Origin: a virus
Reading direction: 5' to 3' (one strand)
DNA: 64,000 bases
Virus record (IMG/VR): IMGVR_UViG_3300020472_000012
Span: 32,001 to 96,000 of that record
Shown piece by piece: positions 1 through 64,000 of the stretch (its first letter is position 1; each line of letters opens with the position of its first letter). The notes beneath the pieces were generated by a model. The model did not search any database. It saw only the letters and a list, made by a program, of their open reading frames with translations, and was not told the origin of the DNA. The position numbers and the translations under genes were made by a program.

Positions 1-1332
1 GTGAATGTTTCCAGAGAATGGGAATTCGCAACTTACTTCGACACAGCTCCAGGCACTTCACCAAATGCAACCGATAAGGGTGCATCTAACGATGAAATGC
101 ATGTGGTAGTTGTAGACGAAGATGGGGATATCACTGGACAAGTTGGAGAAATCTTAGAGACTTTCTCTAATGTATCCAAAGCAACTGATGCAAAAGATTC
201 TTTTGGTGCTTCAAACTATTACAAGAATGTAGTCAGAGACCAATCTGGTTACCTTTGGTGGTTAGACCACAACTCTAACTTAACTACAGTTGGTGTAACA
301 TTACAAAATGCTGGTACAGGTCGTACTTTCAGTACATACAGTCTACCAGTAACAAATAGTTTATCTAATGGTGCTGATGGAGAACAACCTACTTCTGCTC
401 AGAAAAATACTGGTTACTCAACTTACTTGGGTGATGCAGAAACAGTAGATGTAGACTTCCTAATTGCAGGGCCAAACTCTGCTGACAATGGAAGTGGAAC
501 CGAAGTCGCAACAGTTGCCGAAGCTACAACACATATCAACAATCTAATCACAATTGCCGAGTCAAGGAAAGATTGCGTGGTAGTTTGTAGCCCAAGACGA
601 GCAGATGTTGTTAACAATGTAGGTTCTGAACAGAGTTCAGTCACAACATTAGCAGACACACTTACATCAAGTTCATATGCAGTTATGGATAGTAACTGGT
701 TGTACATGTACGATAAGTACAACGACCAATACTGTTATGTACCTGCTTGTGGTTCTACAGCTGGTCTTATGGCAAGAACAGATTTAGTAAGAGACGCATG
801 GTATTCACCTGCTGGTTTCAATAGAGGTCAGTATCTTGGTGTAACCAAACTTGCATTCAATCCTAATCAAGCAGAAAGGGATGAACTTTACAAGAAGAGA
901 GTTAACCCAGTAGTAACTTTCCCAGGCGAGGGAACAATACTATTTGGAGATAAAACTCTATTAAGTAATCCAAGTGCATTTGATAGAATCAATGTACGAA
1001 GATTATTCATCGTATTAGAGAAAGCAATATCAACTGCTGCTAAGTTCCAACTCTTTGAATTCAATGATGCATTCACAAGAGCAAACTTTAGAGCAACAGT
1101 AGAACCTTTCTTAAGGGCGGTGCAAGGAAGACGAGGTATCGTAGATTTCCAAGTTATTTGTGACGAAACAAATAACCCACAGGCAGTCGTAGATGCTAAC
1201 CAATTCCAAGCATCAATTTTCGTTAAACCTAATAAGAGTATCAACTTTATCACTCTTAACTTCGTGGCTGCAAGGTCTGGAGTTGAATTTGAAGAAGTAT
1301 ATGGTGCTACTAACACACTAGCTGGAAGTTAA
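1..1332 (+). CDS. gp18: Tail sheath protein (C-terminal part; truncated at window edge)
   Basis: Sheath motifs WYSPAGFNRG, FDRINVRRLF, FEFNDAFTR; directly upstream of tail tube and portal. Confidence 0.97.
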   Translation: MNVSREWEFATYFDTAPGTSPNATDKGASNDEMHVVVVDEDGDITGQVGEILETFSNVSKATDAKDSFGASNYYKNVVRDQSGYLWWLDHNSNLTTVGVTLQNAGTGRTFSTYSLPVTNSLSNGADGEQPTSAQKNTGYSTYLGDAETVDVDFLIAGPNSADNGSGTEVATVAEATTHINNLITIAESRKDCVVVCSPRRADVVNNVGSEQSSVTTLADTLTSSSYAVMDSNWLYMYDKYNDQYCYVPACGSTAGLMARTDLVRDAWYSPAGFNRGQYLGVTKLAFNPNQAERDELYKKRVNPVVTFPGEGTILFGDKTLLSNPSAFDRINVRRLFIVLEKAISTAAKFQLFEFNDAFTRANFRATVEPFLRAVQGRRGIVDFQVICDETNNPQAVVDANQFQASIFVKPNKSINFITLNFVAARSGVEFEEVYGATNTLAGS

Positions 1333-1342
1333 GGAGTAAAAA

Positions 1343-1840
1343 ATGGCAACAATAGACCAATTTAAAGCACAATTAACATCTGGTGGTGTTCGTTCAAACA
1401 GGTTTCAAGTTTTCATTCCAAGAGCGGGTGAAAGAGTTGAATTTTTAGTTAAAGCTGCACAGATTCCTGCCGAAACTTTCGGTGGGCCTATCGAAGTAAA
1501 CTTTAGGGGTGCAAAACTAAAACTTCCAGGCGAAAGAACTTATGAAGATTGGACAGTTACAGTTCTAAACGATGTTGATTTTAGTATCAGAACAGGAATG
1601 GAAAATTGGATGGGTGAAATACAAGAAAGGGATAGTGGCGTTGGTGCAACTGACCTAGACTATCTTGTATCTCGTGCTTTTGTATCTCAGTTGCATAGGG
1701 ACGAATCAGTTCTAGCAACTTATGAGTTCTTTAACATGTATCCTTCATCTATAGGGTCAATCTCTTTAGATATGGATACCGAAGAAGTACAAACATACGA
1801 CATCACATTCACATACAGTCACTTTGAAAGAACAGTCTAA
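1343..1840 (+). CDS. gp19: Tail tube protein
   Basis: RSNRFQV, LPGERTYEDWTVTVLND, FFNMYP motifs; synteny; AGGAG RBS. Confidence 0.95.
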   Translation: MATIDQFKAQLTSGGVRSNRFQVFIPRAGERVEFLVKAAQIPAETFGGPIEVNFRGAKLKLPGERTYEDWTVTVLNDVDFSIRTGMENWMGEIQERDSGVGATDLDYLVSRAFVSQLHRDESVLATYEFFNMYPSSIGSISLDMDTEEVQTYDITFTYSHFERTV

Positions 1841-1858
1841 TTAAGACTGTTACTTTCT
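1831..1858 (+). terminator. Hairpin at end of gp19 (possible terminator/processing site)
   Basis: AACAGTCT-aatta-AGACTGTT followed by a short T-rich tract. Confidence 0.45.
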
Positions 1859-1864
1859 TAGTGC

Positions 1865-1872
1865 TATAAATA
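1865..1872 (+). promoter_or_regulatory. T4-type late promoter TATAAATA
   Basis: Exact gp55 consensus 9 nt before portal ATG. Confidence 0.85.
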
Positions 1873-1881
1873 TATTTTATT

Positions 1882-3429
1882 ATGGAATTATTTGGATTTG
1901 AAATAAATCGAAAGAAGAGGGAAGCAGAACAAAGGAATGCACCATCCTTTGTTGCACCTGTAAATGACGATGGGGCTCAAGTTATTGAGTCCTCACCTAT
2001 GGGGTCGAATTTTGCTGGTGGACAATACCTCTCTTCTTATATTGATATGGAAGGTGCTATCAAGAGTGAGATTGACCTCATTCAAAGATATCGTTCCATG
2101 TCATTGATACCAGAGTGTGATGCAGCTGTTGACGATATCGTACAGGAAGCAATTGCAACCAACGATTTAGACAACACAGTAAGTATCAATTTGGATGGAA
2201 TCAAAAATGGTGACTTATCTGATAATATCAAAGATACAGTCAGAAAAGAATTTGAACACATCCTATCTCTGTTAAGATTTAGAAATACAGGCCCAGACTT
2301 ATTCAGAAAATGGTATATAGATGGTCGTGCATACTTCCACCTATTAACCGAAAAGGGTTCTCCTAAGAAGGGAATTCAAGGGTTAAGATATATTGACCCT
2401 ATGAAAATCAAGAAGATTAGGGAAATCCATAAGAAGAAAGATGAGAAGACTGGTGTTGAGGTAATTGATAGGATTGAAGAATACTATCATTTCTCAGATG
2501 CTGGATTTGATAAAACTGGTACAAACAACAGTGGTCAAGTCCTAAAAATAAGTCCAGATGCAGTTATAATGGCATCGTCTGGAATGATGGATGCAACTAG
2601 AACTCAAGTAATAGGTTACCTACATAAAGCATTAAAAGCTGGTAATCAATTACGAATGATGGAAGATGCACTTGTAATTTATAGGATTGCAAGAGCCCCA
2701 GAGAGAAGAATTTTCTATATAGATGTAGGAAACCTTCCAAAAGTGAAGGCAGAACAGTATCTTGCAGATACGATGACTAGATATAAAAATAAACTAGTCT
2801 ATAATGCTGACACTGGAGAAATCAGAGACGACAGAAGACATATGTCAATGTTGGAAGATTTCTGGTTACCAAGAAGAGAAGGTGGTAGAGGAACAGAAAT
2901 AACTACTCTGCCAGGCGGACAGAACTTAGGTGAGATAGAAGATATAATCTATTTCCAAAAGAAACTGTATAAGGCACTTAATGTACCTATCAGTAGATTG
3001 GAAGCAGATGCACAATTCTCACTAGGTCGTGCAAGTGAAATTACAAGGGATGAGGTTAAGTTCTCACGATTTGTAGATAAACTAAGACATAAGTTTTCAG
3101 TTCTCTTCTTAGATTTGTTGAAGACTCAACTTATCTTAAAAGGTACGATGTCTGCCGAAGAGTTTGATAAAGCTCGAGAGTATATAACTTTCGACTTTCA
3201 AAAGGACTCACACTTTGTAGAAATGAAGGAAGCTGAAATCTACAGAGAAAGAGTTAACACACTCAGAGAAATGGATGAGTTTGTAGGTAAATACTACTCT
3301 CAGAACTGGGTAAGAAAGAACATCTTGCGTCAATCAGAAGATGAAATCGAAATTATTGATGGTGAGATTGAAAAAGATAAAGACAGTGGTGATGGGGAAG
3401 GAGAGGATGACTCTTTTGACCAATATTAA
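1882..3429 (+). CDS. gp20: Portal vertex protein
   Basis: YRIARAPERRIFYIDVGNLP, EDFWLPRREGGRGTEITTLPGG. Confidence 0.98.
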   Translation: MELFGFEINRKKREAEQRNAPSFVAPVNDDGAQVIESSPMGSNFAGGQYLSSYIDMEGAIKSEIDLIQRYRSMSLIPECDAAVDDIVQEAIATNDLDNTVSINLDGIKNGDLSDNIKDTVRKEFEHILSLLRFRNTGPDLFRKWYIDGRAYFHLLTEKGSPKKGIQGLRYIDPMKIKKIREIHKKKDEKTGVEVIDRIEEYYHFSDAGFDKTGTNNSGQVLKISPDAVIMASSGMMDATRTQVIGYLHKALKAGNQLRMMEDALVIYRIARAPERRIFYIDVGNLPKVKAEQYLADTMTRYKNKLVYNADTGEIRDDRRHMSMLEDFWLPRREGGRGTEITTLPGGQNLGEIEDIIYFQKKLYKALNVPISRLEADAQFSLGRASEITRDEVKFSRFVDKLRHKFSVLFLDLLKTQLILKGTMSAEEFDKAREYITFDFQKDSHFVEMKEAEIYRERVNTLREMDEFVGKYYSQNWVRKNILRQSEDEIEIIDGEIEKDKDSGDGEGEDDSFDQY

Positions 3430-3438
3430 GAGGAATAA

Positions 3439-3627
3439 ATGATGAGTAAAGAAAATATCAAAGACTTAGTTAATGCAATCGAGACTGGAGATAATGTCAA
3501 GGCAACTGATGCATTTCAGGCTGCAATGATAAATAAACAGGCAGATGCAATTGACTCTAAGAGACTTGATGTTCAGATGAATTGGATGGAAAAGGAATCT
3601 GGAGAATCAGAGAGTGAAGAAGTTTAA
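3439..3627 (+). CDS. Small prohead core protein (gp67-like)
   Basis: Small acidic protein between portal and protease; synteny only. Confidence 0.6.
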   Translation: MMSKENIKDLVNAIETGDNVKATDAFQAAMINKQADAIDSKRLDVQMNWMEKESGESESEEV

Positions 3628-3970
3628 AGAACTAGTAAAAGACTTAAACGAAAAGAAGTTTAAACTACCTCGTGGAGAACAAGAGGTGGATTCATACTTC
3701 GAGAAAGGTCAAAGAGGCAAGAAAGTTGCCGTTATCATTGCAAAGAAGTCAAATAAATTTAAAGTTTATGTTGATGGACAAGAACTTGCTATCTATAAGA
3801 GTGAAAAGGAAGCAAGAAAGAATGCAAAACAATTAATTGCATTATTGGGTGAAGACTTAGATGACTTCATCGAACAGTTTTCAATTGAGGATTCATTTGG
3901 ATTCTCAGATGGATTGGTGGGAAATCAATCCTATAGTGAACAAGAAGAAAAGGTTCACGAAATAAAATAA
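3614..3970 (+). CDS. Prohead core protein (gp68-like position)
   Basis: Synteny; N-terminus MKKFKELVKDLNE resembles a capsid-targeting sequence. Confidence 0.55.
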   Translation: MKKFKELVKDLNEKKFKLPRGEQEVDSYFEKGQRGKKVAVIIAKKSNKFKVYVDGQELAIYKSEKEARKNAKQLIALLGEDLDDFIEQFSIEDSFGFSDGLVGNQSYSEQEEKVHEIK

Positions 3971-4714: not shown

Positions 4715-6040
4715 ATGTCTGAACAAGATATACAAAACCAAGAAACCGAAGTAGTCGAAGGTGCAGCTGTACCACAGGCGAAAGGTGCCGTTACCCCAGA
4801 CCCAGATGCTCCTAAGAAAGCAGTTGCTGCAGTTGATAAAGCCGGAGATGCCACTAAACCTTCTAAAAAAAGGAAAGGTGACCAAGAAGGTGGAGACAAA
4901 GCAGCTCCTAAGCAGGAAGAGGTAGAGTCTGATAGTGATGAAGTCGTTGTAGAAGATTTGACCAAAATGGAAGCTCTTCGTGCAATTATTGAAGAACTAA
5001 AGGGTTTGGAAAAAGACGAAATTAAATCCCTCTATGCTGAAATGGTTAAGAAAGAAGAAGATGAAGATGATGAAGACGAAGATGACGATGAAGAAGTCGA
5101 TGAGTCTACAAAAGCTGACCTTCTTAGAAAAATTGCTGAACATTTCAAGACAGAGGACGAAGATACTGTAAAAGAAGCATACGCTGCTATTACAGAGAAG
5201 AAAGAAGAAGTCGAAGATGACGAAGACGATTCAGAAGATGACGATGAGTCAGATGATGATGAAGATGAAGTCAAAGAGAAAACTAAGAAAGAAGAAGTAG
5301 AAATTGATATGTCTGATGACATTGAAGCTTTAATTTCTGGTGAAGACGAACTTTCAGAAGAATTCCAAAACAAAGCAAAAGTAGTTTTTGAAGCTGCTGT
5401 ATCTGCAAAAGTAAACCAAATTCGAGAAGAACTTGAAAAAGAATCTCTTGAAAGAGTTGTTGAAACAACTGGTGAAATCAAAGAAGAACTTGTTACTAAA
5501 GTTGATTCTTTCCTTTCATATGTTGCAGAAGAGTGGGTTAAAGATAACGAACTTGCAATCGAGAGAGGACTTAAGTCCGAACTCACAGAGAATTTTATAA
5601 CAGGTCTTAAAGACTTGTTTGAAGACCATTATGTTGAAGTTCCATCTGACAAACTAGATGTTGTCGATGAACTTGCTGGTAAAGTTGAAGAAGTTGAACA
5701 GAGACTTAACGAAGAAGTTTCTAAGAACATTGATTTAACTGCTTCCAATGAAGAACTAGTTAAAGACAAAGTGGTTCGAGAAGTTTCACAAGACTTAACT
5801 GAACAAGAAGTTGAGAAACTTGGTAAATTAATCGAAGACATAGATTTTAACGATGAGTTTGAATCAAATGTCAAAACCATCAAAGAGTCTTATTTTGACA
5901 ACTCTGCTAAAGAGACTGTCCAATTAGACGAACAGATGGTGGCAAGTGAAGGAGAAGAAAGTGGTTCGACTGACGACAAAATCGTTGACCCAACCATGGC
6001 TGCCTACTCTGCCGCAATAAAGAGGGTTAACCCACTATAA
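4715..6040 (+). CDS. gp22: Prohead core scaffold protein
   Basis: Highly acidic coiled coil; FEAAV, YVAEEWVKDNELAIERG; synteny. Confidence 0.93.
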   Translation: MSEQDIQNQETEVVEGAAVPQAKGAVTPDPDAPKKAVAAVDKAGDATKPSKKRKGDQEGGDKAAPKQEEVESDSDEVVVEDLTKMEALRAIIEELKGLEKDEIKSLYAEMVKKEEDEDDEDEDDDEEVDESTKADLLRKIAEHFKTEDEDTVKEAYAAITEKKEEVEDDEDDSEDDDESDDDEDEVKEKTKKEEVEIDMSDDIEALISGEDELSEEFQNKAKVVFEAAVSAKVNQIREELEKESLERVVETTGEIKEELVTKVDSFLSYVAEEWVKDNELAIERGLKSELTENFITGLKDLFEDHYVEVPSDKLDVVDELAGKVEEVEQRLNEEVSKNIDLTASNEELVKDKVVREVSQDLTEQEVEKLGKLIEDIDFNDEFESNVKTIKESYFDNSAKETVQLDEQMVASEGEESGSTDDKIVDPTMAAYSAAIKRVNPL

Positions 6041-6102: not shown

Positions 6103-7410
6103 ATGTTTATGTCAGAATCTTTACAAGAAAAGTGGCAGCCGGTATTAGAACATCCTGATTTGCCTAAAATCGATGATTCATACAAAAGAGCAGTCACTTC
6201 TGTAGTTCTTGAAAACCAAGAAAGAGCCTTAAACGAAGACAGAGGAATGATATCTGAAGCATCACCAGTTAACGCTGCTGTTGGTTCCGATGGGTCTGGT
6301 ATCTCAAACTGGGATCCAATCCTAATTTCTTTGGTTCGTAGGTCTCTACCTAACTTGGTTGCATACGACATTTGTGGTGTCCAACCTATGACTGGCCCAA
6401 CTGGGTTAGTATTTGCAATGAAAGCTCGTTATAACGATAACACTTCAAGGTTAGCAATGACCGAGGCGTTATTTGACGAAGCAGATTCAGATTTCGCTGG
6501 TGCGGGAACACAAGCTGGAACAGACCCATTTGGGGATGCAGCCACTTATGCTTCTGGTACTGGTATGACTACTGCAGCAGGGGAGGCATTGGGTGACAGT
6601 GCTTCAAATCCTTTTGCTAGTATGGCTTTCACAATTGAGAAAGCAACTGTAACTGCAAAAACTAGAGCTCTCAAAGCAGAATACACTATTGAACTTGCAC
6701 AAGACCTTAAAGCAATTCATGGTCTTGACGCAGAAACAGAACTTGCAAACATATTGTCTGCTGAAATCCTTGCGGAAATCAACAGAGAAGTTGTAAGAAC
6801 TGTTAATGTTCAAGCTAAAACTGGTGCTCAGTCTGGTACTGCTAATGCTGGTCGATTTGACCTAGATGTTGATTCATCTGGTCGTTGGTCAGTTGAGAAA
6901 TTTAAAGGCATGCTCTTCCATGTAGAAAGAGAAGCTAACACAATTGCAAGAGAATCAAGACGAGGAAAGGGTAACTTTATCCTTTGTTCTTCTGATGTAG
7001 CATCTGCACTAGCTATGGCTGGTGTACTTGACTACGCTCCTGCTCTCTCAACTAACCTAAATGTTGACGATGCTGGTAATACTTTTGCTGGTGTTCTTAA
7101 TGGTAAGTATAAAGTCTATATTGACCCATACTACACATTAGACCCAGTAAGTGGTCACAGTAACGAAGGTTACATGACTGTTGGATATAGAGGTTCCAAT
7201 CCTTATGATGCTGGTATATTCTACTGCCCATATGTTCCATTACAAATGGTTCGTGCGGTTGGTGAAAATACTTTCCAACCAAAAATTGGTTTCAAAACTC
7301 GATATGGAATGATTTCAAATCCATTCGTAGGTTCGTCTCCAAGTGATGGTCTTGCATCAGCAGGAAGTAACTTCTACTACAGAAAGGTCGAAGTAGAAAA
7401 TATTCTATAA
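6103..7410 (+). CDS. gp23: Major capsid protein
   Basis: GVQPMTGPTGL, ELAQDLKAIHGLDAETEL, FQPKIGFKTRYG. Confidence 0.99.
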   Translation: MFMSESLQEKWQPVLEHPDLPKIDDSYKRAVTSVVLENQERALNEDRGMISEASPVNAAVGSDGSGISNWDPILISLVRRSLPNLVAYDICGVQPMTGPTGLVFAMKARYNDNTSRLAMTEALFDEADSDFAGAGTQAGTDPFGDAATYASGTGMTTAAGEALGDSASNPFASMAFTIEKATVTAKTRALKAEYTIELAQDLKAIHGLDAETELANILSAEILAEINREVVRTVNVQAKTGAQSGTANAGRFDLDVDSSGRWSVEKFKGMLFHVEREANTIARESRRGKGNFILCSSDVASALAMAGVLDYAPALSTNLNVDDAGNTFAGVLNGKYKVYIDPYYTLDPVSGHSNEGYMTVGYRGSNPYDAGIFYCPYVPLQMVRAVGENTFQPKIGFKTRYGMISNPFVGSSPSDGLASAGSNFYYRKVEVENIL

Positions 7411-7433
7411 GAACTTTTCAAGTCAGAACGATT

Positions 7434-7460
7434 AAAGGGTCTCTTCGGAGACCCTTTTTT
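7434..7460 (+). terminator. Rho-independent terminator with C(UUCG)G tetraloop
   Basis: AAAGGGTCTC-TTCG-GAGACCCTTT then T run, after gp23. Confidence 0.93.
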
Positions 7461-7482
7461 TATATACCTGCTTTTTTAATCT

Positions 7483-7490
7483 TATAAATA
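7483..7490 (+). promoter_or_regulatory. T4-type late promoter TATAAATA
   Basis: Exact consensus 9 nt before ATG at 7500. Confidence 0.8.
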
Positions 7491-7499
7491 ATAGTGTAT

Positions 7500-8333: not shown

Positions 8334-8908
8334 CAACTAGAAGTATAGATGTAGCAACTTGGGCTGGTGATTTACCAGATAATCTTTCATACTTATCACC
8401 TACACAATTTGAGTTGGTAATTGCAAAGTTACCCTCAACAAAGTATTTTGCAACTGGTGCGAATATACCATCAGTTAGTTTAAATGCACTTGCACAGTCA
8501 ACTAGGTTAGGAATACAACCACAGATGCCTGGCGATAGAGTTGCATTTTCAGAGTTCAATGTTAATTTCATCGTAGATGAAAACCTTGAAAACTGGAGAG
8601 AACTATACACTTGGATGATTCAAATAGCTCCTGGCTATGATTCCAATGAGTATAGAAAATTAATAGGGGCAAACGATAGAGTTGGACAAAAGTTCGATGA
8701 TTCTGGAGACCCTAAGAAAATGTATTCCGATATGACAATGGTAGTAACAACTGCAGCCAATAATCCTAATCGTTATGTTAGAATATATGATTGTTTTCCG
8801 ACAACACTTGCAGAGGTTACTATGGATACAACAACAACAGACAATCCTTATGTAGTTTGTAATGCTACTTTTGCATTTACCTACTTTGAGATTGCTACAA
8901 CATCTTAA
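8330..8908 (+). CDS. gp3: Tail completion / sheath stabiliser protein
   Basis: YLSPTQF, ANIPSVSL, FIVDENLENW, FPTTL; position between gp23 and uvsY. Confidence 0.85.
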   Translation: MTTRSIDVATWAGDLPDNLSYLSPTQFELVIAKLPSTKYFATGANIPSVSLNALAQSTRLGIQPQMPGDRVAFSEFNVNFIVDENLENWRELYTWMIQIAPGYDSNEYRKLIGANDRVGQKFDDSGDPKKMYSDMTMVVTTAANNPNRYVRIYDCFPTTLAEVTMDTTTTDNPYVVCNATFAFTYFEIATTS

Positions 8909-10178: not shown

Positions 10179-11578
10179 ACAAAATTGATGAAACTCATAT
10201 AAGAGTTACATCAGACGAGTCAGTTCAAAGAGAAATTTCAGAATATTTTACATTTCCAGTGCCGGGGGCAAAGTTTATGCCTTCTGTTAGGAACAGGTAT
10301 TGGGATGGTAATATTCGTTTATACAATAATGAGAAACTATATACAGGATTGTATTATGCATTATATCAATTTGCTAAGGATAGGGAATATGACATTGAAG
10401 GATATAATTGGGAAACTGATGTTCAAGAAGCGGGATTTATTGAAAACTTACAACTACCCTTCGAGGTTCGAGATTATCAAAGTGAAGCTATATCGCATGC
10501 TATTAAGTACAGACGCTCTCTTTTGGTGTCACCTACTGCTAGCGGTAAGTCTCTTATTATCTATTGCATCGCACGACATTTCTTAAAAGTTCACAAGAAA
10601 CCAGTATTAGTTATAGTACCCACAACCTCTCTGGTAGAACAGATGGCAACTGATTTCGAGGGATATGGGTATAATAAACCTATCGATAAAATGTATGGTG
10701 GTAATAAGGTAGGTGATACTGAGATAGTAGTTACTACTTGGCAGACCCTTAGCAGGATGCCTAGGGCCTTCTACAGCCATTTTGGATGTGTGTTTGGTGA
10801 TGAGGCACATTTATTCAAAGCAAAGGTACTTACAGGTATCTTAGAGAAGATGAAAGACATCACACATAGATATGGAACAACAGGTACATTAGATGATTCA
10901 CAAACACATAAACTCGTTCTTGAAGGACTATTCGGGCCCACTCGTTATGTTACTACTTCTAGTGACCTTATCGATGATGGAGTTCTTGCAGACTTAAATG
11001 TCCAATGTTTGGTACTTCAATACCCAAAAACTACATCCAAAGAGGTAGTTCAGATGGATTATCAACGAGAAATGGAATTTTTGGTAGATAATAACAAAAG
11101 AAATCGTTTTATTCGTAATTTAGTACAAGATAGGGGTGGCAATACCCTTATTCTCTTCCAATATGTAGAAAAACATGGAAAGGGGTTATATAATGACTTC
11201 CTACAACTAGGTGGTAACTTATTCTTCATATATGGTAAGACTGACACTATTGCACGAGAAGAGGCCAGAGCAATAGTAGAGAAGTCAGATAATGCCATTA
11301 TTATTGCATCATATGGTACTTTCTCTACTGGAATTAATATAGAAAACCTAGATAATATAGTATTTGCAAGTCCTTCTAAGTCAAAAATAAGGATTTTACA
11401 GTCAATTGGAAGAGTTTTAAGGAAAGGAAAGACTGGAAAAGCAACTGTATATGATATTGCAGACGATTTATCTTTTGGAAAAAAAGAAAATTATACTCTA
11501 AAACACTTTAAAGAAAGGATAAATACTTACAATAGGGAGAAATTCCCATACACAATACACAACATTAAATTCAAATGA
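10157..11578 (+). CDS. uvsW: SF2 RNA-DNA/DNA helicase UvsW
   Basis: SPTASGKS, DEAH, QSIGRVLR. Confidence 0.96.
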   Translation: MRATIQIDKIDETHIRVTSDESVQREISEYFTFPVPGAKFMPSVRNRYWDGNIRLYNNEKLYTGLYYALYQFAKDREYDIEGYNWETDVQEAGFIENLQLPFEVRDYQSEAISHAIKYRRSLLVSPTASGKSLIIYCIARHFLKVHKKPVLVIVPTTSLVEQMATDFEGYGYNKPIDKMYGGNKVGDTEIVVTTWQTLSRMPRAFYSHFGCVFGDEAHLFKAKVLTGILEKMKDITHRYGTTGTLDDSQTHKLVLEGLFGPTRYVTTSSDLIDDGVLADLNVQCLVLQYPKTTSKEVVQMDYQREMEFLVDNNKRNRFIRNLVQDRGGNTLILFQYVEKHGKGLYNDFLQLGGNLFFIYGKTDTIAREEARAIVEKSDNAIIIASYGTFSTGINIENLDNIVFASPSKSKIRILQSIGRVLRKGKTGKATVYDIADDLSFGKKENYTLKHFKERINTYNREKFPYTIHNIKFK

Positions 11579-12741: not shown

Positions 12742-13802
12742 TGAAGTTTGCTATTCTTAACGACACACATTGTGGTGTTCGTAACGATAACATACAATTT
12801 CACGAACTACAAAGAAAGTTTTATGAAGATGTATTTTTCCCTTATCTGTTAGAACACGACATCAAACATATAGTTCATCTTGGTGATTACTTTGACAAGA
12901 GAACTGGTATTAATTTCTTATCATTACAGAAAAACAAAGAACACTTTGTTGACCATCTTGATGAGTATGGTATTACTATGGATTTAATTCTTGGTAATCA
13001 TGACTTGTATTATAAGAATACATCCGAAGTCAATTCACCACAAGCACTATTAAACCATCCTAATATAAAAATCTATGGTGATGTAATTACTAAAGATTAT
13101 GATGGGTGTAAAGTATGTTTAGTGCCTTGGATTCATAGAACAAACATCGATGACACAGTAGAACACCTAGACACAACCAATGCTACTATTGCAATGGGTC
13201 ATCTAGAAATCGAAGGTGCAATGATGATGCCAGGCTATTATTCAACTCATGGTTTGAGTCTGGATACCTTCAAAAGATTTGATAAAGTTTATAGTGGACA
13301 TTTCCACACCAAATCAGAAATGAACAACCTAAGATATTTGGGTTCTCAAATGGAATTCACTTGGTCAGATTATGGAGATAAAAAATATTTTCATATATTT
13401 GATACAGAAACAAGAGAGGTACTTCCAGTTGCAAACCCTATTAGGATGTTTGAAAAAGTATTCTATGATGATTCCAAAGAAACAATGGAGTCAATTCAAG
13501 AAAAAGATTTCTCACATTTAAAAGATATGTTTGTCAAAGTGGTTGTTATGAGTAAAGACCAACCATATTGGTTTGACATGTTTATTGAAAAGATTACAAA
13601 AGCAGATGTAATCGACTTTAAAGTTGTAGAAGACCACGGCAACCTCGATATGATGGATGACGATGATGCACTATCAGATGCAGAAGATACACTTACAATT
13701 TTAACTAAACATATAGAAGGGATGGAAATCTCTGGAGAAAAATCTAAACTAGAACATTTGATGAGGTCTCTTTATTCAGAGGCTCTGGATGTTAATATTT
13801 GA
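12741..13802 (+). CDS. gp47: Recombination endonuclease, Mre11/SbcD-like
   Basis: DTHCG, GDYFD, GNHD, SGHFH. Confidence 0.96.
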   Translation: MKFAILNDTHCGVRNDNIQFHELQRKFYEDVFFPYLLEHDIKHIVHLGDYFDKRTGINFLSLQKNKEHFVDHLDEYGITMDLILGNHDLYYKNTSEVNSPQALLNHPNIKIYGDVITKDYDGCKVCLVPWIHRTNIDDTVEHLDTTNATIAMGHLEIEGAMMMPGYYSTHGLSLDTFKRFDKVYSGHFHTKSEMNNLRYLGSQMEFTWSDYGDKKYFHIFDTETREVLPVANPIRMFEKVFYDDSKETMESIQEKDFSHLKDMFVKVVVMSKDQPYWFDMFIEKITKADVIDFKVVEDHGNLDMMDDDDALSDAEDTLTILTKHIEGMEISGEKSKLEHLMRSLYSEALDVNI

Positions 13803-16675: not shown

Positions 16676-17334
16676 TAGAACCAAAACGCATAGATTTTAT
16701 TGATTCAGAAGGTATATTACTATATGAGAATGTAGTTTCTAATGACCAGTTGTTTGATTGGTTTAATAAGATGAATAGTCATGCATACTTTAGACAATGT
16801 GCATCTTCTGAAAAGACAACAGATGGTAAAGTTATTGAACAAGCAAAAGCATGGCAAGCCAACTTTAATAAACCAGATGTTATAGAACAGATAAATGCAG
16901 ACCCAAATATAAGTTCTAAGATTTCAGATGTAGATAATCAATCACCATTAGGATTTGACTTAATGGAAGAGATTTGGAATACTATTAATGACCAGTGTGG
17001 GTTTCATCATTTAGAACCAATACAACAATACATAAATGCATTTAATCATGGTGATAATACATGGGGTCATACTGATTGGTATGATTATACAATAATAGTT
17101 TATATCAATCCAGAATGGGATAACCAAATAATGGGTGGAGAAACTTTGTTCTTTGATGACGACTATCAGTTCATTAGATGTGCAGTTGCATGTACGCCAG
17201 GAAATGTAGTATGTTTTAAAGGACAAATACCACATAAAGGTGGTTTAGTGTCAAGAGATACTACTGTAGCAAGATACTCAGTGGTATTTCAATGTAAAGA
17301 GTTTGGTAGTGAAACAGGTCTAGAGGGAAAATGA
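16672..17334 (+). CDS. 2OG-Fe(II) oxygenase
   Basis: GHTD, YINPEW..GGETLF, IPH, RYSVVF. Confidence 0.9.
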   Translation: MIEPKRIDFIDSEGILLYENVVSNDQLFDWFNKMNSHAYFRQCASSEKTTDGKVIEQAKAWQANFNKPDVIEQINADPNISSKISDVDNQSPLGFDLMEEIWNTINDQCGFHHLEPIQQYINAFNHGDNTWGHTDWYDYTIIVYINPEWDNQIMGGETLFFDDDYQFIRCAVACTPGNVVCFKGQIPHKGGLVSRDTTVARYSVVFQCKEFGSETGLEGK

Positions 17335-41266: not shown

Positions 41267-42002
41267 TGAACACAATCACATACATATAGACCAAGTACAA
41301 AGTGGAGATAACTTTGAACTAGGTATTGACCAAATTGGTTATGAGAACTTAATTAAGTTCTCTTTTAACCATGATGATAATACAGTAAACATACTACAAT
41401 CTGGAAACAACATGTATATTGGATATACAGATGCATGGGGTTCTGGTTATAGTTGGGGTGGAGATTTAGATGGATTGAGAAATGATGTTGATATTCGTCA
41501 AAAGTGTTCACTTACATCCTGTAATGAAACAGATTTTCAATTTCATATCTGGGGTGATGACAACGAAGTTGTCTTTGGTCAAGGATATGAAAACAATAAT
41601 AGTTTAACACCAAATTGGAATTACGATGGTAATGAGCCTGGTGGAAACTTTGTCAGACTAGACATACATGGTGATGATAACAAATTCAAAGGAAGTCAGA
41701 AACAAGATTCAAGTTCAGTTAGTCATACTGCAACAGTAAACATATATGCAGACAATAATGATGTATTTTTAAAGCAAATGCAAAATGGAAACAAAACTTT
41801 CACGATGACTATCTATAATGACTACAATGAAGTTGCAGTTACACAAAAAAACAATGGGGCTCATACTGCAACTATTACATTAAGAGGAACCCAACCAACA
41901 GATTTAAACTTATCACAATCTGGAAACACAACACAAACTTATTCATTAAACCAGAATTGTGTAACAGCAGGTGGATGTTCAGTCACAGTAAATCAGAACT
42001 AA
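41193..42002 (+). CDS. Second secreted curlin-like repeat protein
   Basis: Signal peptide; IDQIGYEN, LQSGNN, WGDDNE, HGDDNK, QNGNK, QSGN repeats; C-terminal CxxxxxC. Confidence 0.78.
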   Translation: MKGRGILLLLTMVSLSLSSFVRAGDEHNHIHIDQVQSGDNFELGIDQIGYENLIKFSFNHDDNTVNILQSGNNMYIGYTDAWGSGYSWGGDLDGLRNDVDIRQKCSLTSCNETDFQFHIWGDDNEVVFGQGYENNNSLTPNWNYDGNEPGGNFVRLDIHGDDNKFKGSQKQDSSSVSHTATVNIYADNNDVFLKQMQNGNKTFTMTIYNDYNEVAVTQKNNGAHTATITLRGTQPTDLNLSQSGNTTQTYSLNQNCVTAGGCSVTVNQN

Positions 42003-44794: not shown

Positions 44795-44891
44795 ATAATG
44801 TAGTGTCCGAAAGGAAACTATATTATATAAAGAGATGCCCATAATGGGGTCTCGTATTTAAACCTTGCTTATTAAAAGGAGGCCAAAAATG
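44795..44891 (+). promoter_or_regulatory. ROSE-like RNA thermometer in hsp20 5' UTR
   Basis: Three hairpins; the last pairs CCTTGCTT with AAGGAGG (UUGCU opposite SD). Confidence 0.7.
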
Positions 44892-45428: not shown

Positions 45429-46013
45429 ATGAGTAATTCAGTAGTAAGAGGTCAAGTTCCCTATGACTTGTCTTTTGTTAATGTGGGAGACACATTAGAA
45501 AGCATAGGTTCAGCAACTGCATTTGGTGAAAGAAATGTAGTTTTATTTGGTTTGCCTGGAGCATTTACACCAACTTGTTCCACACAACAACTGCCAGGCT
45601 ATGAAGAGTTGTATGACCAGTTTAGTGAAGCTGGTGTTGATGAAATTTACTGTACATCTGTAAACGATGGTTTCACAATGAAAGCATGGTTCGATTCATT
45701 AGGAATTGAAAAAGTTAAAGCACTTTCAGATGGTAATGGTAAATTTGCAAGATTTATGGGTATGTTAGTATCCAAAGAGAACTTAGGTTTTGGTAACAGG
45801 TCATGGAGATATGCAGCTGTTATTAGAAATGGTGAAGTAGTAAAACTATTTGAGGAAGAAGGAATAAGAGATAACTATGAAGGTGACCCTTATGAAGCTT
45901 CCACACCACAAAATGTTCTTGAATATGTTCAAGAACATCCAATGACACCTATTCCAATAACAGAACATGATGTTGAGAAAGAAGGTGAAGCACCTACCCC
46001 AGCGGGTAGTTAA
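45429..46013 (+). CDS. Peroxiredoxin (Prx5/Redoxin)
   Basis: PGAFTPTCS, SVNDGF, RSWRYA. Confidence 0.94.
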   Translation: MSNSVVRGQVPYDLSFVNVGDTLESIGSATAFGERNVVLFGLPGAFTPTCSTQQLPGYEELYDQFSEAGVDEIYCTSVNDGFTMKAWFDSLGIEKVKALSDGNGKFARFMGMLVSKENLGFGNRSWRYAAVIRNGEVVKLFEEEGIRDNYEGDPYEASTPQNVLEYVQEHPMTPIPITEHDVEKEGEAPTPAGS

Positions 46014-51557: not shown

Positions 51558-52932
51558 GTTAGAATTATTAATACTTAAGAATCTCTTTACGAGTGATGAA
51601 TACATTCGTAAGGTGATTCCATATGTTAGGGATGAATTCTTTTCTGAGAGAGAAGAGAGATTAATCTTTGTTAATATTAAAGAATACTTTGAGAAGTATA
51701 ATAAGAATCCAACTCATGAAGCATTAACAATTCAAATGAATGAGGCAAGTGGTCTCAATCAAGATGAACTATCCAGTGCATTACACATTGTATCTCAATG
51801 TAAATCATCAATAGAAGAAACACCACACGAATTTCTATTAGATGAAACAGAGAAATGGTGTAAAGACAGAGCAGTTTATAATGCAGTAATGGATTCTATT
51901 ACCATCTTAGATAAGAATTCAAAAAGAGATAAGGGTGAGATTCCAGAGTTACTTAAGGATGCACTTTCAGTATCTTTTGACCAACATATTGGTCATGATT
52001 GGATGGAAAATGCAGATGCAAGGTATGAATTTTATCATACAGAAGAAGAAAAGATTCCATTTGATTTAGATTTACTTAATAAGATTACAAAGGGTGGAAT
52101 GCCCAACAAGACTTTGAATATTATAATGGCTGGAACTGGGGTAGGTAAATCCTTGTTCATGTGTCATTGTGCAGCCAACAATCTCATGATGGGTAAGAAT
52201 GTACTTTACATATCTATGGAAATGAGTGAGGAAAAGATTGCAGAAAGAATTGATGCAAACTTAATGAATATTCCATTACAAGAACTTTCAGATTTACCTA
52301 AACCGATGTATGATAAGAAGATTAAATCTATTAGGGATAAGACAGTTGGAAGGTTAGTGGTTAAGGAATACCCAACAGCAGCTGCACATACTGGACATTT
52401 TAGACATCTATTACAAGAGTTAAATCTTAAGAAAGACTTTGTTCCAGATGTAATCTATATTGATTATCTAAACATATGTGCATCATCAAGAATCAAGCCT
52501 GGAAGTAATGCAAACACATATACTTATGTTAAGAGTATTGCAGAAGAGGTTAGAGGTCTTGCAGTAGAATACGATATTCCAGTTATGAGTGCAACTCAAA
52601 CAAATAGAACTGGATTTGTTTCTACAGATGTAGGATTAGAAGATACATCAGAATCCTTTGGATTACCAGCAACTGCTGATTTGATGATTGCATTGATATC
52701 AACAGAAGAACTGGAAGACCTTGACCAGATAATGGTTAAACAATTAAAGAACAGATATAATGACCCATCATACTACAGAAGGTTTGTAGTTGGTGTAGAT
52801 AGAAGTCGTATGAAGTTGTATGATTGTGAACAATCTGCACAAGATGAGTTACATGATTCTGGGCCAGCTTTCGACAACTCTGATACTGGAAAAAGGATAT
52901 CAGAAGAGAAAACAGATGGTTGGAACATATAA
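51547..52932 (+). CDS. gp41: Replicative DnaB-like helicase
   Basis: [27 protein letters not shown]. Confidence 0.97.
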
Positions 52933-53800
52933 TAAGGTCTTACCTTTTAAAGACGATGAACGAGTAATTGACCAATTTGGTTGGACACTAACATCAGTCA
53001 TTAAACCTACTAAAGCATCCAAAAAGAAATGGAAGGATGCATATCTAGAAAATACAGAACAGAGAAGAAGTGATGATGCTGAATACCTAAGTGGATTAAA
53101 ATTCAGTGAGTTCCATGCTGGACTATGTGAAGACATTGTACATTATTGGAGTATGGTTGGTGGTAAAATTGTAGACCCATTTGCTGGAAGATTAACAAGG
53201 GCATTCGTTTCTGCATCATTAGGAAGGTCATACGAAGGTTATGATGTATCACCTACAACAGTAAAGAATGTTAATGAACATTTAGATAAACATTCTATAT
53301 CTGATGCAATTGTTAAAGAGGGTGATGGTTGTATGATGCAACTCACTTATGATGAAAGTGCAGATTTAGTTATGACTTGTCCACCATATCATAGATTAGA
53401 AGCATATGAATCTGCAACAGGTCAGTTATCTGATGTAAAGGGGTATCACCATTTCTTAGAAAGAATTAATGAATGTGGAACGAACATAGAAAGAGTTTTA
53501 AAGCCTGGTGGGTTTTGTGTCTGGATATGTGGAGACTGGAGAGAAGATGGCAAGATGAGGTCTTTTCATTCAGATGTAATAAACATGTTTACATTTAATG
53601 CTGGTCTTAAACTCCACGACACAGTAATTATAGAAAACCAATCACCATTTGCAGCTTTGCAATTAGGTAAGGTTGCATCAAAAAGATATACAAGTAAAGT
53701 ACATGAATATATGTTAGTGTTTAGAAAAGAGGGTGAGATAGTTCCTACTTCAAATAAGATTAAGTTACACGAAGAAAGTAGTTTAGAGGATTTCTTCTAA
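52916..53800 (+). CDS. N6-adenine/N4-cytosine DNA methyltransferase
   Basis: DPFAG (motif I), TCPPY (motif IV variant), LKPGGF, HEYMLVFRK; ends SLEDFF. Confidence 0.88.
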   Translation: MVGTYNKVLPFKDDERVIDQFGWTLTSVIKPTKASKKKWKDAYLENTEQRRSDDAEYLSGLKFSEFHAGLCEDIVHYWSMVGGKIVDPFAGRLTRAFVSASLGRSYEGYDVSPTTVKNVNEHLDKHSISDAIVKEGDGCMMQLTYDESADLVMTCPPYHRLEAYESATGQLSDVKGYHHFLERINECGTNIERVLKPGGFCVWICGDWREDGKMRSFHSDVINMFTFNAGLKLHDTVIIENQSPFAALQLGKVASKRYTSKVHEYMLVFRKEGEIVPTSNKIKLHEESSLEDFF

Positions 53801-55542: not shown

Positions 55543-55889
55543 AAATAAGTAAAGAATTGGAAAGTGCAGTAGAAAAACTTTGTGAAGATATAAACAAAGC
55601 ACATTTTGACCAGTTTCCCAACTTGACAGAGTACAATACTTACCCATCTTATGCGGGTCAAAAATACATTAAAATTATCACTGATACTGGTAATCAAAAA
55701 TCAGTTTGGGGTTTTATTAATGCAAAAGAATTTAAGAAAGGTCTTGCTGGAATCACTTTTTTAGAAGGTGATATTCTAAAAGCTGCTGGATGGAAAACAC
55801 CAGCATTGAATGCACCAAGAGGTAACATTCTAAGGGCACCTTATCCTATTATTGGGATGAGACAATATGGGCCGGATTACCTAAGATGA
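55539..55889 (+). CDS. Conserved phage hypothetical protein
   Basis: KYIKI, SVWGFI, GDILKAAGWKTPA..RGNI. Confidence 0.8.
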   Translation: MKISKELESAVEKLCEDINKAHFDQFPNLTEYNTYPSYAGQKYIKIITDTGNQKSVWGFINAKEFKKGLAGITFLEGDILKAAGWKTPALNAPRGNILRAPYPIIGMRQYGPDYLR

Positions 55890-56092
55890 GTGTTGCAGTA
55901 AATATAGAGTTGTATGAATCTCAAGAGTTTGAAGCATTTTGTCAAACTATGTACATTGCAAATTGTTCAGAAAGAAGACAATACAACGAAGAAATTTATC
56001 CCTCAGTTGAGGATTATTTAACCAAATGTGGGGATTTTTTGAGGGCAGAGTTCGTAAAGAGCCTGAAACAATATGTCAGAAACGAAAGTTAA
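55886..56092 (+). CDS. Hypothetical protein
   Basis: ATGA-coupled ORF. Confidence 0.65.
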   Translation: MSVAVNIELYESQEFEAFCQTMYIANCSERRQYNEEIYPSVEDYLTKCGDFLRAEFVKSLKQYVRNES

Positions 56093-60442: not shown

Positions 60443-60786
60443 TGGCTAAATTAACTTTCAAAGAACATATAGATTACGAAAACGATTGTGAATGTTTTGA
60501 CCATACTATTACAGAGTCAGAATATCAAGGCAAAAAGGTTAAACTAAATGACCCTATCAGAACATCAGAGAACCCTAATAAGAAGTTCAAAGTATATGTT
60601 AAAAATGAGTCTGGTAAAGTTGTTGTAGTTAGATTTGGAGACCCAAAGATGTCAATCAAAAGAGATAGTGATGAAAGAAGAAAATCTTTCAGAGCAAGAC
60701 ACGATTGTGCAAATCCAGGCCCTAAATGGAAAGCAAGATACTGGTCATGCTACCAGTGGAGAGCAAGTGCAAAGGTAGATAACTAA
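60442..60786 (+). CDS. Conserved basic phage protein
   Basis: KKFKVYV, VRFGDP, RKSFRARHDC, RYWSC. Confidence 0.75.
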   Translation: MAKLTFKEHIDYENDCECFDHTITESEYQGKKVKLNDPIRTSENPNKKFKVYVKNESGKVVVVRFGDPKMSIKRDSDERRKSFRARHDCANPGPKWKARYWSCYQWRASAKVDN

Positions 60787-62000: not shown

Positions 62001-62016
62001 ATTATGAGGATATATT

Positions 62017-63174
62017 ATGAACAATGGGGATTCTTCCTTATCTGAATATAGTAAATTTAGAACTATTACTGGTGAAAAAAGATTCACAGACATAGAAAAC
62101 ATTCAATGGTCTGGTAGAACTGTATGGGAATACCAACATCCAACATTCGTTTCTCATTCGAGAAAAGCATTTTTAATTGCACCTAGAAAGACTGGTCATT
62201 CAACACTAAGATTTGCACTTGCAGAAGCAAATGAAAAATATGGTGATGATTGGGTCTGGTTAGAAGGTGGAAATAGACATCCAAAAAACTGGTTAAACGA
62301 TGACGACTTCTGGGAGTTTGCATGGGAAACTCATTATACAGACCCAGAAGAAGATAAACTTGCAAGTAATGTTACACTAATGCCAGATGATGAGCATGAA
62401 CTTAGGATTGTAGATAAACATTTTGCTTATAAAAAAGATACACTATACTCATATTCAGATAAAGCTGGTGATGATTTTTTAGGTAATGCAGTAGGAGTTT
62501 GGAAAAAGAAATATCCTATGGAAAAACATTTAACTAGTTGGTCTCCTTTTATAATGTCAGAATACTTTAAAGATTGGAAAGTTTATGTAATAATTAGAGA
62601 GCCTTGGGATAGATTTATATCTGGACTTATAACAGAATTAGATAATGGATTATATACGCCATGGTTTACTGATTATCAACACACATCAAAAGAATTGTGG
62701 GAAGAATCTTATATAAGAATGAAAAGATTATTGTTATGGAATGATGCAGAAAACATTCTATATGGAACTCGAAATGGCCCCCAAACAGACCATACACTTA
62801 TATTAAGTGCTTGGAAATGGGATGGATGGAGTATGTTTGATAGAGCAGACCATTTTATACCATGTATTCCACAAATAGATTGGGAAATGAGGGATGGTGA
62901 TTGGTCATTTGTTATGGACAAAATAAGAGATACAGGTTCTACATTTATCAATAAACTAAAAGAATGTGATATAATTCCAGAGGAAATTGAAGATGGTAGA
63001 GATGCTGTACCAGCAGATTGGCAATTTACTAATTTATCTCCACCAAATAGAAGACACATTCTAACAGAGGCAACTACAAACGATGAAGACTTAAAACCTT
63101 TCTTTGATAGATGTAAAGAAATAGTCAAAGAAGACCAAGATATCATAAAAAAACAGGAAGTTAAGTTTTTATAA
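62017..63174 (+). CDS. Sulfotransferase-family protein
   Basis: PRKTGHSTLR (5'-PSB), IREPWDRFISG (3'-PB). Confidence 0.7.
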   Translation: MNNGDSSLSEYSKFRTITGEKRFTDIENIQWSGRTVWEYQHPTFVSHSRKAFLIAPRKTGHSTLRFALAEANEKYGDDWVWLEGGNRHPKNWLNDDDFWEFAWETHYTDPEEDKLASNVTLMPDDEHELRIVDKHFAYKKDTLYSYSDKAGDDFLGNAVGVWKKKYPMEKHLTSWSPFIMSEYFKDWKVYVIIREPWDRFISGLITELDNGLYTPWFTDYQHTSKELWEESYIRMKRLLLWNDAENILYGTRNGPQTDHTLILSAWKWDGWSMFDRADHFIPCIPQIDWEMRDGDWSFVMDKIRDTGSTFINKLKECDIIPEEIEDGRDAVPADWQFTNLSPPNRRHILTEATTNDEDLKPFFDRCKEIVKEDQDIIKKQEVKFL

Positions 63175-63176
63175 AT

Positions 63177-63184
63177 CATAAATA
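63177..63184 (+). promoter_or_regulatory. Late promoter variant CATAAATA
   Basis: 6 nt before ATG 63191. Confidence 0.55.
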
Positions 63185-63190
63185 CTGGAT

Positions 63191-63847
63191 ATGAAGACCT
63201 TTAAAGATATTGCAGAAATAAATTCCCAAACAGCAGTCTTTGCATTTGGTAGGTTTAATCCACCAACAGTTGGACATCTTAAACTTGCAACTAGAGTTCA
63301 AAAGATTTCTGGTTCGGATGATGCATTTATTTTTACAGGTTTTACACAAGACCCTAAGAAAAATCCATTACCTTATAAAGATAAGATAAAATTTATGAGA
63401 CTAATGTTTAAACCAACTAAAGTTACAGTAAAGGATACTAATGCAAGAACAGTATTTGATGTAGTAGTTGATTTATATAATGATGGATATAGAAGTATTA
63501 AAATGGTTGCTGGGTCTGATAGAATTAGGGAGTTTGAAAACCTTTTAACAAAGTACAACAAAGTGAAAGGTAGACATGGATTCTACAACTTTAAATCTAT
63601 TGAGATTGTATCTGCTGGGGAGAGAGACCCAGATGCAGAAGGAATTGAAGGTATGAGTGCATCTAAGATGAGAGCACTTGCAGCTAATGGTGATGAAAAG
63701 ACTTTTGTTAAATCATTACCAAAAGGATTCAGACAGGGTAAACAACTATACAAGGCAGTAAGAAAAGGTATGGGTCTTAAAGAACATTGGGACTTTTTAC
63801 CATCTTATATGAGAGAAGATGTTGGAAGAGAAATACGAATTACTTAG
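63191..63847 (+). CDS. Cytidylyltransferase-like (HIGH-family) nucleotidyltransferase
   Basis: FGRFNPPTVGH, KNPL, GSDR, MSASKMR; N-terminus MKTFKDIAE. Confidence 0.9.
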   Translation: MKTFKDIAEINSQTAVFAFGRFNPPTVGHLKLATRVQKISGSDDAFIFTGFTQDPKKNPLPYKDKIKFMRLMFKPTKVTVKDTNARTVFDVVVDLYNDGYRSIKMVAGSDRIREFENLLTKYNKVKGRHGFYNFKSIEIVSAGERDPDAEGIEGMSASKMRALAANGDEKTFVKSLPKGFRQGKQLYKAVRKGMGLKEHWDFLPSYMREDVGREIRIT

Positions 63848-64000
63848 TGAAGGTATCAACGATGTTGGTATCTTTAAAGCAGTCTTCATGGCAGGTGGGC
63901 CAGGAAGTGGTAAGTCTTATGTTGCAAATAAGTTAGGACTTAAAGCACTTGGACTGAGACCAGTTAACTCAGATGATTTCTTCGAGGCTGGATTAAAGAA
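63819..64000 (+). CDS. P-loop kinase, N-terminal fragment (runs off window)
   Basis: MLEEKYELLSEGINDVGIFKAVFMAGGPGSGKS...VNSD. Confidence 0.8.
   Translation, partial: MLEEKYELLSEGINDVGIFKAVFMAGGPGSGKSYVANKLGLKALGLRPVNSDDFFEAGLK

Follow-up and report, generated by a model that had tools for sequence, protein, structure and literature searches.

Gene content of the gp44-gp62 locus

The stretch of viral DNA analyzed here, hereafter the window, spans 64,000 nucleotides and corresponds to bases 32001-96000 of a 114,373-bp IMG/VR virus contig (IMGVR_UViG_3300020472_000012; CheckV completeness 63%). It has a G+C content of 35% and holds nearly all of its genes on the plus strand. The source phage is T4-like, and its nearest cultured relatives are the Kyanoviridae pelagimyophages Melnitz, a Methylophilales (OM43) phage, and Mosig and HTVC008M, both Pelagibacter phages, whose gp44 proteins are 56-62% identical to that of the source phage; a near-identity DNA search against cultured phages returned no useful match. 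The clamp-loader genes gp44 and gp62 are separated by three genes that are predicted to encode a C5-cytosine DNA methyltransferase, a TET/JBP dioxygenase, and a TET-associated glycosyltransferase (TAGT). Here, we describe this module together with a genome-wide footprint, in which restriction-type words have been lost unless a particular flanking base is present.

The predicted C5-cytosine DNA methyltransferase (423 amino acids, window positions 29857..31128, plus strand) is the putative writer of 5-methylcytosine (5mC) at GC[C/T]. It matches PF00145 (E 5e-49; 167.9 bits against a cut-off of 22) and contains the catalytic C5-methylase motifs I (FAGGGG), IV (GSPPC), VI (CENV), and VIII (QKRER). 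On the same strand, it overlaps the start of the TET open reading frame (ORF) at 31053, which is the parallel arrangement within five genes of a TET/JBP gene used by Burke 2021. The predicted TET/JBP 5-methylcytosine dioxygenase (349 amino acids, 31053..32102, plus strand; PF12851, E 5e-13, 48.9-50.7 bits against a cut-off of 34.9) possesses the HxD iron motif (HID at 246-248) and is 51% identical to the Melnitz ORF that adjoins the Melnitz methylase. The third gene encodes a predicted TAGT (264 amino acids, 32264..33058, plus strand) that scores 33.6 bits against PF20691 (cut-off 27.5) and matches phrog_842 (E 2e-36), the PHROG family of a T-even glucosyltransferase.

The nearest solved structure to the methylase is 8YF3 (E 3e-70), that of the GC-specific SpCmoX of the SpCmoX/CmoA/CmoY system from Synechococcus phage S-B43, which provides a GC-specific handle for hypermodification (PDB 8YF3, PMC12783734). 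While the two enzymes share the SPPC motif, SpCmoX transfers a carboxymethyl group and requires Arg350, whereas the aligned residue in the source methylase is a leucine (IGLMVAP versus VGRMVPP). Since this arginine is absent and a TET gene adjoins, the enzyme is probably a methylase rather than a carboxymethyltransferase. The first-pass annotation of this DNA had predicted that the module modifies GpC, and the nearest characterized relatives of the methylase indeed target GpC (PMC8256090; SpCmoX, PDB 8YF3, PMC12783734), suggesting the same for the phage enzyme.

Flank-dependent loss of restriction-type words

A CCNGG or CCGG site was regarded as shielded when preceded by G (position -1) or followed by C (position +1), and as unshielded when flanked by H and D. 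Counts are given as observed/expected, where the expectation was derived from 400 synonymous-codon shuffles for the window and from 500 codon shuffles for the whole contig, both keeping protein sequence and codon usage and counting both strands. By direct count, the window contains 18 CCNGG sites, and all 18 are shielded, as the first-pass annotation had claimed for the Pro-Gly pairs. Every one is an in-frame Pro-Gly pair, 16 within our own gene calls, where the codons were checked, and two within ORFs dropped by the gene caller. A 3' C alone shields CCAGG at 49..53 (CCA GGC), 922..926, 1526..1530, 22963..22967, and 60715..60719, and CCTGG at 8630..8634 and 38592..38596. Both flanks are present around CCAGG at 2911..2915, 13230..13234, and 45594..45598 and CCTGG at 8528..8532. 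A 5' G shields CCAGG at 17197..17201, by way of the rare codon ACG, and CCTGG at 41637..41641 (GAG), 45555..45559 (TTG), and 52498..52502 (AAG), as well as CCGGG at 10262..10266, which is also a CCGG site. The remaining two sites, CCTGG at 53504..53508 (within the ORF of a second methylase) and CCAGG at 63900..63904, likewise carry a 5' G. The codon triplets that the annotation quoted at 49, 17197, 41637, 45555, and 52498 proved exact, and the use of rarer codons is real, since GGC makes up 5.6% of glycine codons and yet occurs in 11 of the 16 Pro-Gly pairs. All five CCGG sites are written GCCGG (4842..4845, 6139..6142, and 55872..55875, one as GCCGGC at 31372..31375, and the CCGGG noted above), and GATC is found once, at 6313..6316 inside GGATCC, both as previously reported.

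Against the codon-shuffle null, unshielded sites are missing altogether. In the window, HCCWGGD stands at 0/21.5, HCCGGD at 0/21.6, GATC at 1/184.9, and ACGT at 0/96, while the shielded forms GCCWGGD (13/9.6) and GCCWGGC (4/0.3) exceed expectation. Over the 114-kb contig, 36 of 36 CCNGG and 7 of 7 CCGG sites are shielded; HCCWGGD is absent where 41.8+-4.4 copies were expected and GGWCC where 54.7+-5.1 were expected (0/500 shuffles as extreme), and GCCWGGC reaches 7 against 0.5. The full count of unshielded HCCNGGD and GGWCC sites proposed by the first-pass annotation is therefore zero. In contrast, words that are not avoided (CCGA, CCGC, CCAT, CCTT, and CCAA) have ordinary flanks, with 6-15% preceded by G. 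The flank rule is thus real and far beyond chance, and the short words are depleted on both strands relative to a protein- and codon-preserving null, as in restriction-site avoidance. One element of the earlier argument did not hold. All 22 Gly-Pro pairs (about 23 by the previous estimate) are written with GGC or GGG, though GGT and GGA together account for 84% of glycine codons, and the window contains no GGWCC (31.9 expected) and 27 GGSCC (8.7 expected); however, this recoding is not evidence of shielding, because an enzyme of the AvaII type that cuts GGWCC would by itself explain the GGS-CC spelling.

An unbiased k-mer scan of the contig extended the list of purged words to about 15, comprising GATC, ACGT, GGWCC, CCWGG, CCGG, CCGT, CCTCC, and CCTGA, together with CCCGA, CGWCG, GCGC, CGCG, AGTACT, TTCGAA, GGTACC, and GTGCAC. 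The nonpalindromic words among them follow the same flank rule. All eight CCGT copies in the window are GCCGT (8/11.7, versus 0/101.7 for HCCGT), located on the plus strand at 3729..3732, 4788, 7699, 42059, 42423, and 46529 and on the minus strand at 13636-13639 and 20309-20312. The three CCTCC copies (minus strand, 6582..6586, 44878-44882, and 57830-57834) are all G-preceded (3/5.8, versus 0/52.2 after H), as are both copies of CCCGA (minus strand, 10932..10936 and 24652-24656; 2/1.5, versus 0/14.5). Four of the six CCTGA copies are G-preceded (56062..56066 on the plus strand; 3516-3520, 26828-26832, and 43091-43095 on the minus strand; 4/7.0, versus 2/76.5 after H), the exceptions being a T-preceded copy at 6154..6158 on the plus strand and a C-preceded copy at 41254-41258 on the minus strand. 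The contig-wide counts agree, with H-preceded and G-preceded copies at 0/194 and 15/19 for CCGT, 0/95 and 5/9 for CCTCC, and 2/160 and 7/15 for CCTGA, and with three of three CCCGA copies G-preceded. GCCGT can be marked on one strand only, and its survival, along with the tolerance of single-flank GCCWGGD sites in the contig (28 against 14 expected), supports the earlier prediction that modifying one strand is protective. Avoidance of Shine-Dalgarno sequences was considered as a cause of the loss of GGAGG and was rejected, as GGAGG persists solely as GGAGGC and the coding strand has lost CCTCC too.

GpC alone is insufficient for rescue. Words that no modifiable C can precede (GATC, ACGT, GGWCC, AGTACT, TTCGAA, and GGTACC) are gone, apart from the single GATC; but words that hold or touch a GpC are purged as well, namely GCGC (1/20), CGCG (1/10), GTGCAC (0/15), and CGWCG (1/44), including G-flanked CGWCG. 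When six module-clade genomes were pooled, avoided words in the GCC context stood at 0.69 of expectation when G-preceded and 0.02 when H-preceded, whereas the corresponding values were 0.42 and 0.08 for the GCT context (CTGAAG/CTTCAG) and 0.10 and 0.02 for the GCG context. A preceding G therefore rescues words well in GCC, less so in GCT, and hardly at all in GCG. The earlier proposal that ScrFI/EcoRII- and HpaII-like sites are purged unless a cytosine lies in GpC is accordingly retained with regard to shielding, while its protective context, GpC, was too broad. The order GCC > GCT >> GCG fits the GpC[C/T] specificity measured for TET-linked phage C5-methyltransferases (PMC8256090), which suggests that a writer of this kind is responsible.

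Relatives with and without the methylase-TET module

For comparison between genomes, the module was taken as the methylase and TET genes, which are carried by the source contig, the related genomes G004 and G005, and Melnitz, and are missing from Mosig and HTVC008M, in which no C5 methylase or TET was found. Methylase and TET are the only genes that the four module-bearing genomes have in common and that both module-less ones lack. In Melnitz, the methylase, TET, and a third ORF adjoin the DNA polymerase gene, and the unshielded words are absent (HCCWGGD 0/68, HCCGGD 0/54, GGWCC 0/65); HCCWGGD occurs at expectation in Mosig (89/87) and HTVC008M (112/101). The methylase was further found in 80 IMG/VR loci at 53-89% identity, and among those with >=75% identity (61 loci, 717 kb), only 3 of 96 CCWGG sites are unshielded where 82 would be expected. 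The sole methylase locus with exceptions (L049) contains three unshielded CCWGG, two unshielded CCGG, and two GGWCC sites, and may be a chimeric or recombinant contig. By contrast, in 44 module-less loci with adjacent gp44 and gp62, 213 of 295 CCWGG sites are unshielded (196 expected). The comparison of relatives suggested by the first-pass annotation thus revealed no such bias in Mosig, HTVC008M, or these loci. The difference extends to individual codons, where conserved Pro-Gly positions at orthologous sites are shielded in 26/26, 18/18, 22/22, and 8/8 cases in module phages versus 4/11 and 1/10 in module-less phages. An inverse pattern was seen in the module-less relatives, in which GGSCC is purged (0/19 in Mosig and 1/16 in HTVC008M) and GGWCC occurs at expectation; it also appears in loci L129-L175.

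Module sublineages vary in their avoidance of GATC, ACGT, CCGT, CCTCC, and CCTGA, and any CC-word under avoidance survives solely behind a G. CCGT offers a natural control, as lineages that do not avoid it hold 79 H-preceded and 8 G-preceded copies, while lineages that do avoid it keep G-preceded copies only.

Selection on these words reaches the proteome. Pro-Gly dipeptides occur at 0.40 of expectation in the source contig, G004, and G005 and at 0.62 in Melnitz, versus 1.08-1.14 in module-less relatives. In-frame shielded CCWGG sites number 33 against 6.4 expected, whereas out-of-frame shielded sites, which can be avoided, are depleted (2/7.3, 5/8.5, 1/8.2, and 1/9.7), so that avoidable shielded CCWGG stands at approximately 0.3 of expectation. 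The shield hence appears to be a last resort, as would be expected for a mark that is added after replication. Moreover, GCY contexts are under-represented in module phages. GCA constitutes 0.61-0.76 of their alanine codons, versus 0.47-0.54 in module-less phages, and TGCA reaches 1.25-1.65 of the codon-shuffle expectation in the four module genomes, versus 0.79-0.94. Module phages may therefore be minimizing their modifiable sites.

Several other genes were examined in the same setting. A 416-amino acid ORF (24759..26009, plus strand) is a homologue (E 1.5e-13) of the Melnitz ORF 6269-7552, which lies directly 3' of the Melnitz methylase-TET pair; G005 also has this gene, whereas G004, Mosig, and HTVC008M lack it. 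The ORF has no match in Pfam, PHROG, or PDB and no similarity to a 445-amino acid glycosyltransferase of the related genome G001, and by its homology to the Melnitz ORF it may be a further module component. The second DNA methyltransferase, which is of the N6/N4 type with permuted motif order (52820..53800, plus strand; PF01555, E 2e-19), has no counterpart in G004, Melnitz, Mosig, or HTVC008M and is not part of the GCC footprint. Immediately 5' of the methylase, orf254 (29102-29866) was considered and rejected as a nuclease, as it gives a weak match to 2OG-Fe(II) oxygenases (phrog_81, E 7e-4) and no PDB hit, and is conserved at the locus in relatives. A small staphylococcal nuclease-like protein (PF00565) is encoded at 50067-50483; Melnitz, G005, and G001 encode it too, whereas G004, Mosig, and HTVC008M do not. 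Lastly, in three close relatives (L106:14943-16070, L125:14294-15439, and L116), DruA-like PF14236 genes and GT-B-like glycosyltransferase genes replace the methylase-TET pair at gp44-gp62. DruA-like proteins number in the thousands in marine metagenomes, and HTVC008M and Mosig encode them as well. As these two phages lack the CCWGG footprint, the DruA-like protein was rejected as a sufficient alternative writer in G001, G002, and L116.

A proposed sparse cytosine mark that would shield unavoidable sites

We consider it likely, with a probability of roughly 0.8, that sparse hypermodification of GCY cytosines shields the sites that the genetic code forces on the phage, while the phage has purged the rest. 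The mark would be written on the phage's own DNA after replication. The C5-methyltransferase would methylate the GpC cytosine when the next base is C, and less well when it is T; TET would oxidize 5mC to 5-hydroxymethylcytosine (5hmC), to which TAGT would then add a sugar. The cytosines able to carry such a mark would amount to between ~1.6% (GCC) and 4.6% (GCY). Sequence-specific nucleases encountered during infection, most likely host restriction enzymes, would have driven the loss of the approximately 15 words. A G in front of a CC-word would lead to marking of its first C and thereby render the word safe, a mark on one strand being enough, and this shielding would be used solely where synonymous escape is impossible. 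If CCWGG and CCGG are both targeted, Pro-Gly (CCN GGN) is always a site; the unavoidable pairs would hence be written as CCN-GGC or NNG-CCN, and many others would have been removed from the proteins. On this account, the genome itself would record protection from cutting by a very sparse DNA mark.

A number of observations weigh against this account. The modification itself, its chemistry, the cytosine that bears it, and which nucleases exert the selection and to whom they belong are inferred from the sequence, and the footprint would fit a mark on either C of GCC. All module lineages avoid CCWGG, CCGG, and GGTACC, while they vary in their avoidance of GATC, ACGT, and CCGT, a pattern that host restriction alone does not obviously predict. 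The close relatives G001 and G002 display the footprint with no methylase or TET in the 48 and 32 kb sequenced (26% and 18% complete), and their gp44-gp62 loci hold glycosyltransferases and a DruA-like gene in the module's place. HTVC008M shows partial rescue by G, with CCGA at 3/128 when H-preceded and 13/43 when G-preceded and CGATG at 5/94 and 12/15, respectively. In Mosig, all 18 GATC sites lie within GGATCC. Context effects can thus arise in other ways, as the partial rescue in HTVC008M and the GGATCC-bound GATC sites of Mosig demonstrate. A search of HTVC008M for PF00145, PF01555, and PF02086 methyltransferases, covering these three families, found none. HTVC008M also avoids TCGA (2/211) and RGCY words, and its GATC sites carry G at -1 in two thirds of strand views. 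The confinement of GATC to GGATCC, seen for the single copy of the source contig and for all copies in Mosig, constitutes a second context-conditional avoidance, which involves no GpC and has no known writer.

More tentatively, the GCY mark could be a purpose-built patch for code-forced sites (Pro-Gly as CCNGG, Gly-Pro as GGNCC) that is kept rare because marked sites would still be a liability when marking follows replication, with the nuclease pressure being partly carried by phages. The shift of alanine codons to GCA, the excess of TGCA, and the depletion of avoidable shielded CCWGG would be signs of such a patch. We regard this fuller version as possible rather than probable. As to who cuts, we consider improbable, though worth weighing, an alternative in which the same shield operates but the selecting nucleases are phage-encoded and degrade host DNA or exclude competing phages, self-immunity being achieved by purging and marking. 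The closest relative, G001 (gp44 95% identical), encodes a Tsp45I-family type II endonuclease at the methylase's position (L106:12046-12813; PF06300, E 2e-66), with no methylase seen nearby. Among ~170 loci, G001 is the sole carrier of this gene and the sole genome without GTSAC (0/40 in 47.8 kb), which occurs at the expected frequency in all other relatives; the gene looks like a phage-borne restriction enzyme to which self-immunity is gained by site purging. In addition, many restriction nucleases have been reported within such modification gene clusters (preprint 10.1101/2023.12.21.572611), and the module is accompanied by avoidance of CCWGG, CCGG, and GGTACC even where lineages differ in the other words that they avoid. 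However, no conserved phage nuclease co-varies with this trio of words, because methylase and TET are the sole shared genes specific to the module phages, and matching gene presence to motif avoidance in four close genomes yielded no restriction-enzyme candidate. Among those ORFs of the 63%-complete contig that were scanned, a part of the total, no type II endonuclease family was found, only nucleases of the HNH homing and SNase types. This negative result and the sharing of methylase and TET alone are pointing towards host enzymes as the source of the constant CCWGG and CCGG pressure. The nuclease-driven purging proposed by the first-pass annotation is supported by the footprint, whereas the owner of the nucleases, host or phage, had been assumed.

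We find it quite unlikely that the G-flank rule stems not from methylase, TET, and TAGT but from another GpC-context writer, or that it reflects the flanks preferred by the nucleases themselves. The footprint in G001 and G002 and the partial rescue in HTVC008M would be accommodated by such an explanation. Nevertheless, at least six unrelated words obey the same rule, which points to a property of the DNA rather than of each enzyme; the order GCC > GCT >> GCG equals the published specificity of the methylase family; and no relative without a module at its gp44-gp62 junction has the CCWGG footprint. G001 and G002 are, moreover, small fragments that still encode TET-associated glycosyltransferases, enzymes that depend on 5hmC. 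A reading with no nuclease selection at all, in which mutation bias (e.g. 5mC deamination) or preferences in codon pairing or translation produced the pattern, is very improbable and already contradicted by the shuffle counts, the orthologous Pro-Gly positions, and the in-frame and out-of-frame counts: although strand-specific biases in codon context are strong in this genome (AGC 0.58, TGC 1.41) and CpG is depleted, the flank rule holds for palindromes and on both strands, deamination would deplete the very GCC copies that are spared, every obligate Pro-Gly site is respelled by means of a rare codon, and shielded forms stand 2- to 15-fold above the null.

Shielding by a sparse GCY mark has both precedents and points of departure among known systems. 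Clusters of C5-methyltransferase, TET (5mYOX), and glycosyltransferase genes, of the same three families and in the same order, were described on marine metagenomic T4-like contigs (PMC8256090; 10.1101/2023.12.21.572611). The activities of their enzymes were demonstrated in E. coli and in vitro, while their function was left open (PMC8256090; 10.1101/2023.12.21.572611). Their discoverers did not decide whether phage or host DNA is the target of the mark (10.1101/2023.12.21.572611) and called genome-wide protection by a GpC-limited mark 'unlikely' (preprint 10.1101/2023.12.21.572611). Relative to those clusters, the genomes studied here suggest that phage DNA itself receives the mark, which is complemented by the purging of every site that cannot be marked. 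The likeness to the glucosyl-hydroxymethylcytosine of T4 lies in a sugar-bearing 5hmC that blocks restriction; T4, however, substitutes all of its cytosine before replication and can do without site avoidance, whereas in the source phage at most ~5% of C would be marked, and after replication. Avoidance would consequently do most of the work in the source phage, because so few of its cytosines can be marked. Classical restriction-site avoidance is exemplified by the GATC-free Staphylococcus phage K, in which palindromes likewise fall to zero against expectation; the source phage differs in that one flanking base of a modifiable context decides and in that Pro-Gly pairs are lost from proteins. 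Bacillus phages SPR, phi3T, and rho11 encode orphan, multispecific C5-methylases, and chloroviruses encode the GpC-specific M.CviPI together with their own restriction enzymes. In all of these, a virus-encoded enzyme protects viral DNA, but the Bacillus-phage and chlorovirus methylases cover whole restriction sites, whereas the three-base context of the source phage overlaps sites by chance or through codon choice. Our literature search found no published description of flank-conditional site avoidance.

The role of GpC-limited, post-replicative cytosine hypermodification has been an open question, and its discoverers doubt that it protects the genome (10.1101/2023.12.21.572611). The footprint would supply evolutionary evidence from nature that the mark is placed on phage DNA, that several unrelated nucleases are blocked, that one strand suffices, and that the mark works alongside a near-total purging of sites that reshapes even the proteome. 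It further predicts, from sequence alone, a writer specificity of GCC>GCT>>GCG. As the footprint is present in the cultured OM43 phage Melnitz, these predictions can be tested at the bench, and the module clade is abundant in ocean metagenomes. If the more tentative patch reading is true, flank-conditional avoidance would offer a general way to read the specificity of unknown DNA marks from sequence alone, which could cover phages in which no writer is recognizable, for instance HTVC008M, or Mosig, where GATC occurs as GGATCC only.

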